The notes below the pieces were generated by a model. It was not told the DNA's origin and did not search any database. It saw only the letters and a program-made list of their open reading frames with translations. A DNA stretch of 57,310 bases from Candidatus Kuenenbacteria bacterium (GTDB lineage Bacteria; Patescibacteriota; Patescibacteriia; UBA11705; JABHMO01), in NCBI GenBank assembly GCA_013202715.1, contig JABMRF010000046.1:1-57310 (forward strand), read 5' to 3'. Below, in pieces: positions 2,411-46,821 of this stretch; position 1 is the stretch's first letter, and every line of letters begins with the position of its first letter. The translations under genes and the position numbers were made by a program.

Positions 2411-2490
2411 TTTAGTCTAGAGTCTAGAGTCAAAAGTCAATAGTGAAAACTTCTCCAGACTCTAGACTTTTGACTTTTGACTAAATGACT
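2411..2490. repeat. Inverted heptamer array pair with no gene between
   Basis: AGTCTAG/AGTCAAA units at 2411-2443 facing GACTCTA/GACTTTT units at 2457-2490. Confidence 0.85.
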
Positions 2491-3359
2491 ATAAAGATTC
2501 CTCCCGCCACAATTAAAGCAATGGCAACTGTTTTCTTCAACAAAACTGCTCGCGAATGTCGCTCTAATATAATTTTCGGATAAAAAAAGCTCAAAAATGT
2601 CGCTACGAAAAACACCAGCATTGGCTTCGTTGACATTAGAGCTGAAACCAAGGAGACAGATCCGATTGAAATTGCTTTTGTAAATGAAATCAGGGCAAGT
2701 CCTGACAGCAAAGCGATAAAACACAAATGAATTATGCCGGACTTGGCTTTTTCGCGGATATGCGGATGATGGAATATTAACAAAATTAACGGAACAAGTA
2801 AACCACCGACTCCAAACCAAAACAGCATTGGCCAAAATGAAATTTCGAGGGTAATGTATTTTATCAATATATTTCTAAATGCAAACATGCCCATAGCTAC
2901 AAAAGGTAAAATCAAAAAACCCTTGTGCGTAACTTTACTGATACTTTTTTTGTGAGAAATAATTATCGCACCAAGGACAATGGCTATAATGCCAACATAA
3001 TTCATCAAAGTCAATCGCTCCGCAAAAAGAAAAAATGAGGCCACCGCAATAATAAGAGGCTCAATTGCGAGGATCGGAACAAGTCGTGAAACCTCAATTT
3101 TTTTCATTGACAAGTAATATGTGCCAGTACCTACAGAATAAAGCAAACCACCGAGCATAGAGACCAGGATCATTGTCCATGGAATAAGCACGTGGCCGTT
3201 AATTAGACCAAATAAAATAAACAAGAGATAAATTGTCAATCCGAAAACCGTCGTCACCAGCACTGGATCACGAACTTCATGCCCAATAATATACTTGTCC
3301 ATGATATTGACAACTGTCCAGATAACAATGGCAATGATTGTAAATAATATCCAACTCAT
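2481..3359 (-). CDS. EamA/DMT family transporter
   Basis: About 10 hydrophobic helices in two repeats, with a typical DMT pattern (EVSRLVPIL...ERLT; GSVSLVSAL). Confidence 0.8.
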   Translation of the reverse strand: MSWILFTIIAIVIWTVVNIMDKYIIGHEVRDPVLVTTVFGLTIYLLFILFGLINGHVLIPWTMILVSMLGGLLYSVGTGTYYLSMKKIEVSRLVPILAIEPLIIAVASFFLFAERLTLMNYVGIIAIVLGAIIISHKKSISKVTHKGFLILPFVAMGMFAFRNILIKYITLEISFWPMLFWFGVGGLLVPLILLIFHHPHIREKAKSGIIHLCFIALLSGLALISFTKAISIGSVSLVSALMSTKPMLVFFVATFLSFFYPKIILERHSRAVLLKKTVAIALIVAGGIFIVI

Positions 3360-3408
3360 AGTAAATAAAAATTAAAAATCAAGAATTAAGAATTAAGAAT
3401 TAAGAACA

Positions 3409-4188
3409 TTACTTTTCAAGCGCTTCTTCGCTAAACAAAACATAATCAAACAGACCCAAAACAGGAGCATAGCGCGGCATTTGTGCGCTAAGGCTCTGAT
3501 TGGCGTCTCGAAAACTTCCGGTTGTTTTTATATTTAGATAATTTGGAAAAACCAATTGCTGGCCGTGCTTATTATCTAAACTGAAAAGTTTAATTTCGAG
3601 ATCATCAACATCACCATAGAGCGCTTTTACCCGAACACGGTAATTTTTATTTCCAGAAAAAGAATTAATGATTGCGCTTCCGCCATTATATAACATTTTT
3701 TGCACATTCAAATCTTCAGCTTTCATCGCTGGATCCCAGGAAAACCATTTAATTGTTGTGGCTGAATCCCAGGCGACATAAGTTACTTCCAACCACGTAC
3801 CGGTGCTTGACCAGGTCAAACCAACAGATTCAACTCCAAGCGGATCATTATTATTATCCGGATTAAATAAATCAAATTGCACGGTCTGATTTTTTGCCAA
3901 ATCAAGAGATAATTCAGAAACTGTCTGATCATCTACTTCCAGTTCACAATCAAGGGCAACATTGCAGTCACCGTCATCAGGAATCAGATCATTTTTTCGA
4001 ATACTGTAAAGCGCTTTTTCAATTCCACTCTCACCGGCATAAAAAGCGGCCTGGGCATTACTTATCGAACCGGCCTGCTTAATTGTACTCATTACAAAGT
4101 TTGAAATAACAATTGTGGTACTCAAAATCGCCGCAATGGTAAGCAAGGCGTAAATCAGAACATTTCCTTGTTGATTTTTATCTTTCAT
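3409..4188 (-). CDS. PilX-like minor pilin / pilus assembly protein
   Basis: N-terminus QQG-NVLIYALL plus hydrophobic helix, and the AQAAFYAGESGIE motif typical of PilX N-termini. Lies in a pilin cluster. Confidence 0.7.
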   Translation of the reverse strand: MKDKNQQGNVLIYALLTIAAILSTTIVISNFVMSTIKQAGSISNAQAAFYAGESGIEKALYSIRKNDLIPDDGDCNVALDCELEVDDQTVSELSLDLAKNQTVQFDLFNPDNNNDPLGVESVGLTWSSTGTWLEVTYVAWDSATTIKWFSWDPAMKAEDLNVQKMLYNGGSAIINSFSGNKNYRVRVKALYGDVDDLEIKLFSLDNKHGQQLVFPNYLNIKTTGSFRDANQSLSAQMPRYAPVLGLFDYVLFSEEALEK

Positions 4189-4750
4189 AATATCGAGAAC
4201 TTACCGTTGTTTGTAAATTGATAGTTTTCACATCTTCCTCATGCAAAGCTAGAGTTTTCCCTTGAACAACAATTATTACCTGGGGTTGATTATCGCTTTT
4301 ATATTCACCTTGCAGTTCGTCAAACTGATACGGGCTTTCTTTAGGTAAAATGTAAAAATCCAGTTTTTCTATTTCAATATTATTTGATGAAAGAACAAAA
4401 GCATCATCATTACCAACTTTTTGTAAAATACAGCTCAAAACTTCAGGCGCACAACCTTCATCGTATTTATAAATTAAGACCGTCTCATCATTTTCATTAA
4501 TTAAAGCTAACTTGTCTATTGGATGAGTAATCTGATCATTATAATAATCATAATCAATTTTATTCATTCGGGTCTGCTGAACAATTTGTTCAACATTATA
4601 TTGCAAATCATTCATCGCCCGCTGACCGGTCAAAATTTTTCTCTGAGTCAACGAAACTGACAAGAAAATATCGCTAACCACAAGCATCAGCGTTAAAAAT
4701 AACGCCATAACAACGAGCATTTCGATTAAAGAAAATCCGCGCTGATTCAT
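4178..4750 (-). CDS. Type IV prepilin-like protein (PilW/PulJ-like)
   Basis: Class III signal peptide QRG|FSLIEMLVVM. Confidence 0.85.
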   Translation of the reverse strand: MNQRGFSLIEMLVVMALFLTLMLVVSDIFLSVSLTQRKILTGQRAMNDLQYNVEQIVQQTRMNKIDYDYYNDQITHPIDKLALINENDETVLIYKYDEGCAPEVLSCILQKVGNDDAFVLSSNNIEIEKLDFYILPKESPYQFDELQGEYKSDNQPQVIIVVQGKTLALHEEDVKTINLQTTVSSRYYER

Positions 4751-4786
4751 AAAACAGAGTTAATTAAGTTAACTAAGTTAATTGAG

Positions 4787-44917: not shown

Positions 44918-44984
44918 ATATACATTCTTAATTCTTAATTCTTTATTCTTTATTTTTAATTCTTTATTTTTTAAAAAATCACTC

Positions 44985-45434
44985 TTATTTTTCGTCAATA
45001 TGATCAGATATTTCCTGGCCTTCGTAAACACCTCCAGTATTTACCATCAGAGACAAATCTCGTAATCGAGAACCGGAAACTGGATCTTTTTTCTTGTGTT
45101 CTACCTTCGTTTCTTTGAGCCCACTGGCAACCTCGCGAACCACATTGATATATGCCTCCCGATTCCAGACCCTTAGCTTTGATCTTTTCAGTGTCTGTAC
45201 AAAATTTAATAAAAAGTAATGAATCGGACGTCCATTTACCTTGGCAAAAGCTAAAATTGACAAGATCGTTGTACTAAACACTGCCGCGGCTATAAAATAA
45301 AGAAAGGCAAAAACCTTGTAACAAATAAAAGCAACCAATAATGCAGCGAGCATAATTACAAACTGACGAGTCGTAACCGGTCCGATAATTTTATCTTCTA
45401 CGTCAATAAATTGTGGTACTAGAAATTGATTCAT
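44985..45434 (-). CDS. prgI: PrgI family protein (VirB3-like)
   Basis: VPQFI.VEDKI.GP.T.RQF, two TM helices, K.NGRP. Confidence 0.85.
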   Translation of the reverse strand: MNQFLVPQFIDVEDKIIGPVTTRQFVIMLAALLVAFICYKVFAFLYFIAAAVFSTTILSILAFAKVNGRPIHYFLLNFVQTLKRSKLRVWNREAYINVVREVASGLKETKVEHKKKDPVSGSRLRDLSLMVNTGGVYEGQEISDHIDEK

Positions 45435-45541
45435 AAAACTTCATAGTAATTTGGCTTCGCCGTAATTTAGTAATTAATAATGATTTCTCAATTACCTAAT
45501 TACAATCAATTACTATCAATTACCTAATTACCTAATTACGA

Positions 45542-46780
45542 TCAGTTGTTCAGTTGTTCGTTCAGCTTACTAAACATCTCGTATTCACTCAAACTTAAAC
45601 TATCCTTGTTTTCTCTTTGTCTTTTTTCTATTGTAGCTGTGATTGGTTTTTTTTCTCGAATCGCCTCGAGTGTCATGGCAATATATAATTTAAAAACAGA
45701 TGACTTTTTCCAGGCATTAATGCCCTCAAGTTTTTTTCCCAAAGATTGTCCAGCCAGCACTTGAATTTTTTCCATAATTTCTTCCATAATTTCTTTTTCA
45801 TCTTTTCCTAGAGTCCGCAAATCTTTTAGATTCATAAATTCCAACTCTTCAACCGGGCCAATTAATTTACGGTGATGTTTAATATTTTCCAGGCCAGGCT
45901 TAGCCTTTCCTTCCGGGACAAGGTTCAAAGTTGGCCTAACAACTTTTTGAAAAGGCACTTTTTCCACCTCTCTTTTAATTGGTTTGCTCCTAGCCGCAAC
46001 AGCAGCCAGTTTCGCGGTCGGAGTTTGTTTATTATTAATGACCGCAGGTGGAGGCGGTTCCAATCGGTGTTTAATGTCGATAACTTTTTTAACGGAAGTA
46101 TTTCCACCATCTCTTCTTTCTTTTTCCATCAGTTGAGCCTCTTGTTCCAAAAATGCAACAATTAATTCTGCTTTTTCTGAAGGTAACTCAAGGCCACCAC
46201 TTACTCTGGGAACGGTTAAAATATATTTCACTTCCTTTGGTTTTCTTATCCCACGAAAATATGTAACAAGTATATTAAAAAATCTATCTTTAATTTTCTG
46301 ATCACTAAACTCAATTTTTAATTTATTTATAACGTGATTAACTTTTTCCTCGACCAACTTCTTGTCTTGACCACGCCTCTGGTTCAATTCCGGATCATGA
46401 TCAATTTTTTCCAGTTCAATTTCTTCCCGCGGAACAAAAACTATTGGCTGGCTTGCCTCTGGTCTGGCTGTCGGTTTGAGCTGCTTAACGTGGTTAACTG
46501 GTTTAACTGGTTTATCTGGTTTAACTGGCTCAACTGCTTTAACTGTTTCAACTGGTTTAACTTGATTTCCGCTTTTGGCGGAAACTTTTTCAGCAACAGC
46601 TTTCTTTTTTGATTCAAAAGTAAAAACAGGACTTAATACCTTTTTTTGTGTTTCACCAACTTGTTTTTCAACGTTTTGCTCTTTTTCAATTTCTTTAATA
46701 TCAAAAAACTGGCCGTCTTTGTAATATTTCAACTGGCCGTCTTTGTCTTTGACTAACATGTAACCTTGGGTATTAACCAT
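45542..46780 (-). CDS. Hypothetical protein in the T4SS-like locus with VKP repeats
   Basis: 412-aa ORF; a 9-mer tandem array (about 46487-46563) encodes VKPVETVKAVEPVKPDKPVKPV. Confidence 0.65.
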   Translation of the reverse strand: MVNTQGYMLVKDKDGQLKYYKDGQFFDIKEIEKEQNVEKQVGETQKKVLSPVFTFESKKKAVAEKVSAKSGNQVKPVETVKAVEPVKPDKPVKPVNHVKQLKPTARPEASQPIVFVPREEIELEKIDHDPELNQRRGQDKKLVEEKVNHVINKLKIEFSDQKIKDRFFNILVTYFRGIRKPKEVKYILTVPRVSGGLELPSEKAELIVAFLEQEAQLMEKERRDGGNTSVKKVIDIKHRLEPPPPAVINNKQTPTAKLAAVAARSKPIKREVEKVPFQKVVRPTLNLVPEGKAKPGLENIKHHRKLIGPVEELEFMNLKDLRTLGKDEKEIMEEIMEKIQVLAGQSLGKKLEGINAWKKSSVFKLYIAMTLEAIREKKPITATIEKRQRENKDSLSLSEYEMFSKLNEQLNN

Positions 46781-46821
46781 AATTACTATTAATTACAATC
46801 AATTACTATGAATTACCCTTT

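Follow-up and report, generated by a model that had tools for sequence, protein, structure and literature searches.

Inverted short-unit arrays in gene spacers of a Candidatus Kuenenbacteria contig are probably dispersed foldback repeats with variable cargo

Introduction

Arrays of short units in the spacers between bacterial genes, such as the short tandemly repeated repetitive sequences (STRR) of cyanobacteria, the heptamers of Xanthomonas and the TAACTGA repeats of Beggiatoa, have been catalogued for decades and, to our knowledge, have no agreed origin. The STRR of heterocystous cyanobacteria, reportedly described by Mazel et al. in 1990, are said to be intergenic tandem heptamers with several families per genome. 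MITEs (miniature inverted-repeat transposable elements) and repetitive extragenic palindromes (REPs, or REPINs when paired into hairpins) are small dispersed non-coding elements whose inverted arms fold back. A separate puzzle is posed by PF05635, the family of ‘23S rRNA intervening-sequence proteins’, for which we know of no function outside diversity-generating retroelements. Here we analyse a 57,310-nt contig (JABMRF010000046.1; hereafter the window) of a Candidatus Kuenenbacteria bacterium, a tiny-genome member of the Candidate Phyla Radiation (CPR), whose spacers hold hairpins made of a short word repeated forwards and then backwards. An earlier note on this DNA had named nine such loci and suggested that they might be empty sites of cassettes that carry a four-helix gene. 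Our analysis indicates that these inverted arrays are probably dispersed, fast-turnover foldback repeat elements with variable cargo rather than conserved control elements.

Two described systems stand closest to the window. In Xanthomonas, the heptamer GGGAATC forms transcribed tandem arrays that lie mostly in the spacers between co-oriented genes, and 70-75 convergent pairs of arrays on opposite strands, close together, may form stem-loops (Rehm et al. 2015, PMC4692102). In Coxiella, the intervening sequence (IVS) of 23S rRNA brings together a 28-bp stem, strain-variable heptamers and a PF05635 open reading frame (ORF), and its cleavage by RNase III has been demonstrated (Warrier et al. 2016, PMC4990558). 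PF05635 ORFs have also been recorded in rRNA insertions of CPR bacteria (PMC11270868).

Results

Nine spacers hold inverted arrays of one unit family

Tandem Repeats Finder (TRF) returned 103 rows for the window before merging. When an array was counted as a period of 6-12 nt present in at least 2.5 copies, with rows merged, the window contained 47 short-period arrays, compared with 2-5 in each of ten dinucleotide-preserving shuffles. Twenty-seven of the 47 are intergenic, though spacers amount to 4,703 bases, or 8.2% of the window. The nine loci named in the earlier note all proved to be what it had described: at each, one unit family, with units of 6-11 nt, forms a pair of inverted arrays. 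Their arms are imperfectly complementary, mostly at 74-89% (Table 1). Scored against shuffles, their arm alignments gave z-values, in order of position, of 6.6, 3.0, 2.4, 6.2, 6.1, 5.5, 3.2, 8.1 and 3.1, and folding of the whole spacers gave z-values from -5.4 to -1.4, with two of the nine above -2. Because arm scores fall as low as 2.4, three loci are individually weak; the set as a whole is real.

All nine lie between protein-coding genes, that is, outside any 23S or 16S rRNA helix, and the 0-86 nt between their arms are too short for a gene. A scan of the window with Rfam matched no family at any of the nine sites, its sole matches being three tRNAs. The hairpins also lack the features of intrinsic terminators, a short G+C-rich stem followed by a run of T: they are long, AT-rich and imperfect and have no T run, whereas canonical terminators are present elsewhere in the window, in the spacers 7921-8017 and 29133-29188.

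The material compared with the window comprised eight loci from relatives, all syntenic with it, 80 PF05635 loci from metagenomes, and source-run contigs (L numbers designate the loci). The syntenic loci, of 12.6-21 kb from seven relatives with 65-68% RseP identity to the window, were found via homologues of the RseP protease (10851-12014). The best relatives of this protease, none above 70% identical, belong to Candidatus Falkowbacteria and other groups of Patescibacteria; a Nostocales cyanobacterium, which the STRR-like look of the heptamers had suggested as host, was rejected on that evidence. An RseP-alignment scan of genome contigs also returned Patescibacteria, at no more than 53% identity among the matches listed, and a scan of genome contigs with a fast-evolving 376-aa protein gave no match. 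The window sequence itself comes from one study of a freshwater metagenome, where four DNA runs contain it.

A gene-less hairpin shares its arms with a PF05635 cassette

The window contains just two PF05635/TIGR02436 genes, each flanked by inverted heptamer arrays (cassettes A and B). The earlier note had placed the gene-less hairpin at 2410 (2411 in its numbering), between the EamA gene and ligA, in the same heptamer family as the arms of cassette A. The likeness goes further, to the order of the units: the left arms are identical at 36 of 39 positions and the right arms at 22-23 of 24, and the unit variants TAG, TAG, AAA and AA- follow one another in that order in both left arms. The closeness of this array to the ligA start was likewise borne out, as its left arm begins 3 nt from the ATG (CAT at 2404-2406); at the other end, the EamA stop codon falls inside the right arm.

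Contigs of the source runs indicate that this arm occurs at further sites. Bins over the arm common to the cassette and the 2410 hairpin reach 4-8 times the flanking depth, and contigs of 19.6, 7.0 and 8.6 kb at genome depth (13-15x) hold the arm with 0-3 differences. Four joints of a left arm with a right arm are found, and between the arms stands only TCTCCAG (which is the 2410 hairpin itself), GGTAAAAT, a 15-mer or a 27-mer; the separations in the three joints other than 2410 are 8, 15 and 27 nt. From the depth and the differing loops, we take it that the AGTCNNN family has, besides 2410, at least three other gene-less hairpins in the source metagenome, against one gene-bearing copy.

Repetition of arms is also seen in other unit families. 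The 8-mer elements at 9656 and 19344, whose arrays join at a TGTTTAAACA centre, share the identical 25-mer reported in the earlier note; it is exact and lies on opposite DNA strands, hence in equal orientation relative to transcription, and the two elements additionally align over 69 nt on the same strand. Copies of the AATTAC family in the source-run contigs are confined to those within the window, where the cores in the 23916 and 45444 hairpins are spaced 8-10 nt apart. In the relative L168, hairpins at two different junctions (6874-7107 and 11168-11311) have 36 identical arm bases (GGCTACAAATTACAAATCACTACAAATTTACAAATA), with loops of about 95 and 55 nt that differ in content, one of them with a GC-rich REP-like stem. 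An 11-mer search of the cassette arms against the other unit families gave weak low-complexity overlaps only, and a few 8-mer-family words in L146 were not counted as evidence. For the seven loci other than 2410 and 6788, we found neither arm homology to a gene-bearing copy nor a filled orthologous site.

The surroundings of cassette A have features of their own. About 320 nt away there is a second copy of its right arm plus the final codons of the lamin-tail-domain gene (51508-51560 and 51829-51880), and the bin 51807-51873 has about 7-8 times the depth of its flanks in the source run, which makes it the most-repeated version of the arm. A 60-aa ORF at 51549-51731 was considered as the N-terminus of a REP-associated tyrosine transposase (RAYT) and was dropped, as it had no Pfam match and no BLASTP match to the RAYT-like gene. 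That RAYT-like gene of the window reaches 56.6 bits, short of the family cut-off of 80, and separate GC-rich REP-like hairpins are present in the window.

A filled and an empty site at the GAPDH-to-A24 junction

The earlier note had suggested looking in relatives for a four-helix gene at the hairpin junctions, and one was found at the junction that in the window holds the 6788 hairpin (Table 1). L083 and L085 belong to one sub-clade, with 74% RseP identity, and the PF05635 gene of L085 sits between the two halves of a gene-less hairpin of the L083 type. Upstream of the gene, the L085 spacer agrees with the 5' half of the L083 hairpin at 12 of 12 positions (p<0.002); downstream of the gene, the spacer agrees with the hairpin's 3' half and tail at 20 of 23 (p=0.002).

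PF05635 cassettes mostly carry A-first arms, which in one clade travel with the gene

Scanning metagenome contigs yielded the 80 PF05635 loci, of which 74 had enough flank to be scored by the best inverted match between 160 nt upstream and 160 nt downstream; 91 other genes of the same loci served as controls. The median score was 30 for the PF05635 genes and 16 for the controls (Mann-Whitney p = 5.5e-17), and scores of at least 30 were reached by 51% of the former against 6.6% of the latter. The arms are tandem units of 6-9 nt.

Five of these genes (L087-L091) form a clade whose proteins are 75-89% identical to one another and 55-59% identical to that of cassette A. All five have AAAAGTC/AAAAGTT (AAAAGTY) arms in flanks that are unrelated except for the upstream flank of L089 and L091, which argues for joint inheritance of arms and gene in this clade. 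In the window, cassettes A (AGTCAAA) and B (AAAAGTT/AAAAGTA) use the AAAAGTY word as well. From our reading of the flanking ORFs, not from tool annotation, the L091 cassette (3001-3372) follows the end of rpoB and precedes the start of rpoC, and the L090 cassette (620-991) lies just upstream of the start of fusA (elongation factor G); on that reading, both are inside core expression operons. The upstream flanks of L089 and L091 are 99% identical over 516 aligned positions (tblastx), with unrelated sequence downstream of the cassette, a pattern left either by rearrangement or by a break in the assembly at the cassette arm.

In 41 of 43 well-armed PF05635 cassettes, the upstream arm is richer in A than in T (binomial p = 2e-10); the median distance of the arms to the ATG and to the stop codon is 10.5 nt. 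Among the nine hairpins of the window, the A-rich arm comes first at four (2410, 6788, 12063 and 41578) and the T-rich arm at five (9656, 19344, 23916, 35699 and 45444), a ratio that differs from that of the cassettes (Fisher p = 0.0009). PF05635 cassettes therefore do not account for the T-first class. When hairpins at the other loci were counted by a strict automated procedure, rough and insensitive enough to miss the window's own hairpins, 7 were A-first and 4 T-first. The arm order also bears on an earlier claim, that the 2410 arms have the same transcript polarity as those of cassette A. The shared unit family stands, as described above; the polarity is uninformative, because a word, a loop and the reverse complement of the word read identically from both strands, so that only the order of A-rich and T-rich arms can differ.

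Hairpins turn over rapidly between relatives

At orthologous junctions, the relatives often carry another hairpin or none. The EamA-to-ligA spacer, 74 nt in the window, is 4, 6 and 28 nt in L168, L169 and L170. The spacer ahead of RseP holds a hairpin in the window, L083 and L167, and is 25, 3 and 19 nt long in L081, L169 and L170. L083 and L167 are 93% identical in RseP, yet their hairpins at this place are built from unrelated words. Between clp and the DUF8173 gene, L083 has a 165-nt 8-mer hairpin that is absent from L167, while the flanks align almost without difference; the alignments of presence and absence between these two show replaced sequence and no target-site duplication. No arrays occur in 21 kb of L169 and few in L170, and the unit words are lineage specific among the relatives compared.

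These comparisons bear on the possibility that in polycistronic transcripts the hairpins are RNA structures under selection, serving as RNase III sites, REP-like protectors of 3' ends or occluders of start sites. Their position would suit such a role. We found no extended -10 box in the hairpin-bearing spacers and clear TTGACA / TGGTATAAT promoters in other spacers, so the hairpins are probably internal to operons, between co-directional genes. Several of them end 3-15 nt ahead of an ATG, in a window whose leaders are A/T-rich and where even a loose Shine-Dalgarno motif (AGGA, GGAG, GAGG or AAGG within 20 nt) is found at just 7 of 53 gene starts. The heptamer-bearing stems of the Coxiella 23S rRNA IVS, which RNase III cuts (PMC4990558), offer a precedent, and the GAPDH-to-A24 junction holds a gene-less hairpin in three of seven genomes and a cassette in a fourth, though the unit words differ. 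We nevertheless consider selection for RNA structure unlikely, since the same junctions are stemless spacers of 3-28 nt in other relatives and since genomes as close as L083 and L167 may have, at a given place, unrelated hairpins or a hairpin in just one of the two. Nor do the mismatches point to RNA pairing: in 18 hairpins we counted 30 of G:U type on the sense strand, 25 on the antisense strand and 69 of other kinds that break the pair on both strands, so there is no G:U bias towards the sense strand, and two of the nine spacer folds, as noted, are weak. The processing stems and translational control proposed in the earlier note are therefore not borne out by the comparison.

Arrays also occur in frame within genes

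Arrays of the same kind are found inside coding sequences. The Asp/Glu-racemase gene (13290-14168) has in-frame 7-mer and 9-mer arrays at 13684-13748 and 13877-13911, which encode KEQGAKIKEQSKSKDQSLKTKEE and ARQARRARLARQ; in an alignment with six relatives, both segments are hypervariable, indel-rich loops, and the 9-mer is the GCGAGAC unit of the 12063-12162 hairpin. In RadA, an AGTCAAA x4.4 array (27847-27877, aa 35-45) codes for ESKVNSQKSKV, a stretch of the linker that follows the zinc ribbon, and the RadA proteins of L001 and L002 have similar SQKSK-type residues there. Such arrays fit a pervasive insertional or slippage process that is filtered by tolerance. Two other repeats lie in or near genes whose products have no Pfam match: at 46485-46562, a 9-nt unit, TTAACTGGT, is repeated 8.7 times in a 412-aa gene and codes for a three-residue repeat, and at 29603-29722 words of the CGCGGAT/GCGGAT type recur upstream of a 137-aa gene (29189-29602).

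A general mutational process of this sort could by itself be held to make the hairpins, with a seed word expanded by slippage and copied to the other arm through intrastrand template switching at quasi-palindromes, free of any mobility or relation to cassettes. The many unit lengths, the direct-only arrays, the arrays in coding loops, the single-copy families and the lineage-specific words are what it would give. We think a purely local origin quite improbable, because it leaves unexplained the 36/39-nt identity with like variant order at distant loci, the shared 25-mer, the 36 arm bases common to two L168 hairpins with different loops, the AAAAGTY arms of one gene clade in unrelated contexts, and the filled and empty pair.

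It is highly improbable that family-specific regulators bind the arrays, as operators or RNA ‘addresses’, and so tie functionally related genes together: although the AATTAC family precedes three genes, two of them with type IV secretion Pfam matches (T4SS-pilin/C39 and PrgI), one AAAGTY leader is conserved behind a conserved promoter, and heptamer direct repeats just upstream of start codons in Beggiatoaceae have been proposed as regulator sites (PMC4679880), orthologous junctions of the C39 gene have no arrays (12 nt in L085, 70 nt in L169) and families do not follow function, with AGTCNNN at ligA and at a cassette and the 8-mer at an unknown gene and a Clp ATPase.

Table 1 Hairpins, cassettes and direct arrays of the window, and the GAPDH-to-A24 junction in relatives.
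Feature	Position or locus	Units	Arms, pairing and fold	Context
Inverted heptamer pair, gene-less	2410..2486	AGTCTAG/AGTCAAA family	2410-2438 / 2458-2486, 29 nt each, 79% complementary, 19 nt between; inner 17-nt core 16/17; -28.4 kcal/mol, z -4.6 against dinucleotide shuffles	Fills EamA-to-ligA spacer
Inverted pair, gene-less	6788..6920	Irregular 6-7 nt A-rich/T-rich units	6788-6845 / 6862-6920; 41/59 matches; fold z -3.8	GAPDH-to-prepilin-peptidase (A24) spacer
Quasi-palindrome without loop	9656..9736	8-mer units (TATTGTTG / AACAGT-type)	9675-9706 / 9701-9732; palindrome without loop	T-rich arm first
Inverted 9-mer pair	12063..12162	GCGAGACTA family	12070-12101 / 12131-12162; 25/32 (78%); fold z -4.9	Upstream of RseP; right arm overlaps end of upstream gene
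Second 8-mer quasi-palindrome	19344..19430	8-mer units	19362-19395 / 19396-19429; 74%; no loop	Leader of Clp-type ATPase gene; ends ~6 nt ahead of ATG
Inverted pair	23916..24037	GTAATT / AATTAC cores	23916-23933 / 24020-24037; 16/18 (89%)	Upstream of T4SS-pilin/C39 gene; T-rich arm first
Inverted pair	35699..35792	~11 nt units (TTTCGCG.. / ..CGCAAA)	35699-35716 / 35750-35767; 15/18; TRF period 22; fold z -1.4; arm z 3.2	T-rich arm first; weakly paired
Inverted 9-mer pair	41578..41650	GAATTGAGT family	41586-41611 / 41624-41650; 23/27; fold z -5.4; arm z 8.1	Best-paired among the nine
Inverted pair	45444..45544	GTAATT / AATTAC cores	45462-45485 / 45508-45531; 19/24	Upstream of PrgI-like gene; T-rich arm first
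Cassette A (reference)	51024..51549 (-)	AGTCNNN	51024-51056 / 51519-51549	PF05635/TIGR02436 four-helix-bundle gene 51091-51483
Cassette B (reference)	54969..55415 (-)	AAAAGTT/AAAAGTA-type		Second PF05635 gene 54989-55360
Direct-only array	8813..8882 (-)	AAAGTC/AAAGTT		Leader directly after TTGACA / TGGTATAAT promoter
Direct-only heptamer array	3360..3408 (-)	TAAGAAT x5.9		Fills spacer ahead of EamA; example of non-inverted arrays
Hairpin	L081	GAATTAA-type		GAPDH-to-A24 junction
74-nt gene-less hairpin	L083	ACAAGT / ACTTGG		GAPDH-to-A24 junction
PF05635 gene, 116 aa	L085			GAPDH-to-A24 junction
Direct arrays only, no hairpin	L168, L170			GAPDH-to-A24 junction
29-nt spacer, no hairpin	L169			GAPDH-to-A24 junction

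Discussion

The data support four observations: arms that are dispersed with their order of units preserved, one pair of filled and empty sites, arms that travel with one gene clade, and loss or replacement of hairpins among close relatives. On the account that we favour, of dispersed foldback repeats, each element would have two arms of tandem copies of a family-specific unit of 6-11 nt and would lie in the spacer of co-transcribed genes. The arms would form a portable module that may be empty or may enclose either non-coding DNA, from a few nucleotides to about 100, or a PF05635 gene for a four-helix bundle. Copies might spread by means of some enzyme or by recombination from arm to arm. Once placed, arrays would drift and change copy number by slippage, and would be tolerated because they lie in spacers or, in frame, in variable loops of proteins. 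By analogy with 23S rRNA intervening sequences, transcribed stems might be cut by RNase III.

On this account the nine hairpins fall into two classes. The A-first hairpins at 2410, 6788, 12063 and 41578 are candidates for gene-less counterparts of PF05635 cassettes, either deletion derivatives or empty sites, and the evidence for that status is direct at 2410 and at the junction of 6788. The T-first hairpins at 9656, 19344, 23916, 35699 and 45444 are foldback repeats of like build with no PF05635 link seen. The idea of empty cassette sites thus holds for 2410, through arm identity, and for the 6788 junction, through L083 and L085, and fails for the five T-first hairpins. As to the common generating process or function put forward in the earlier note, the process is plausible, while function found no support in the comparison.

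Several observations weigh against dispersal as a general account of these elements. The contigs with arm joints were taken as other loci on their depth and differing loops rather than on assembled context. The 9-mer hairpin at 41578 is a single copy in the source metagenome, so that dispersal is established for some families only. We saw no indel or presence/absence variation among the four source runs, the sequence being identical in all, nor was a transposase linked to the arms or a target-site duplication seen. At the filled site of L085, the arms around the PF05635 gene are no longer significantly complementary (p = 0.85), and the site is therefore degenerate; the L083/L085 difference may reflect a gene inserted into a hairpin or one lost from a cassette, in either direction. 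Finally, the leader with AAAGTY units at 8813-8882 has conserved counterparts in L083 (11951-12046) and L167 (11253-11349), at 68% RseP identity, which hints at constraint; the L083 and L167 leaders carry an inverted partner and that of the window does not.

A wider reading, which we regard as rather unlikely, would have each PF05635 protein recognise the unit word of its own arms, and would explain in this way why one protein clade keeps AAAAGTY arms at unrelated sites. Gene-less hairpins would then be landing pads, cargo would move by arm-to-arm exchange, and rRNA intervening sequences and the short-unit hairpins of CPR bacteria, Xanthomonas and cyanobacteria would be the products of one system.

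The two puzzles with which we began, the origin of short-unit arrays and the role of PF05635 proteins, are joined here by a gene-less hairpin that has its arms in common with a PF05635 cassette elsewhere in its genome, by a pair of filled and empty sites, and by one clade that keeps one word. The connection thereby becomes testable, through binding of the protein to the repeat and through cleavage by RNase III. This analysis adds the filled and empty pair in a CPR clade, the identity of hairpin and cassette arms within one genome, the A-first rule and its failure at five loci, and the tests of turnover and wobble pairing. For annotators of CPR genomes there is also a caution: the striking spacer structures described here are not conserved regulatory elements, and such arrays also sit in frame inside genes.

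How do these elements compare with known systems? With MITEs and REP sequences they share a preponderance of gene-less copies over a gene-bearing relative, at least four AGTCNNN hairpins against one cassette, and the AGTCNNN, 8-mer and AATTAC families, though not that of 41578, have several dispersed near-identical copies; they differ in that their arms are tandem arrays rather than unique terminal repeats and in that neither a transposase partner nor a target-site duplication was seen. The STRR of cyanobacteria, which the earlier note had taken as the closest precedent, are an analogy only, because the host is a CPR bacterium; the units differ from the STRR consensus heptamers, with 8-11-mers among them, and in the nine spacers pairing into hairpins is the rule. 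The 23S rRNA IVS of Coxiella, Leptospira and Salmonella are alike in having a long stem of terminal inverted repeats, heptamers beside the ORF, and a loop in which a four-helix ORF is optional, with many versions that have none; the elements of the window, known here from DNA, lie between protein-coding genes instead of in rRNA helices, and their arms consist wholly of tandem units. The nearest published description of gene-less inverted heptamer pairs is that of the Xanthomonas GGGAATC arrays (PMC4692102). There, a single G-rich unit has been studied as a former of G-quadruplexes, with no link to gene cargo and with positions reported as conserved between species (PMC4692102), whereas in the window, which has a CPR host, the unit families are many, AT-rich and 6-11 nt in length, turnover is fast and there is a link to PF05635 cassettes.

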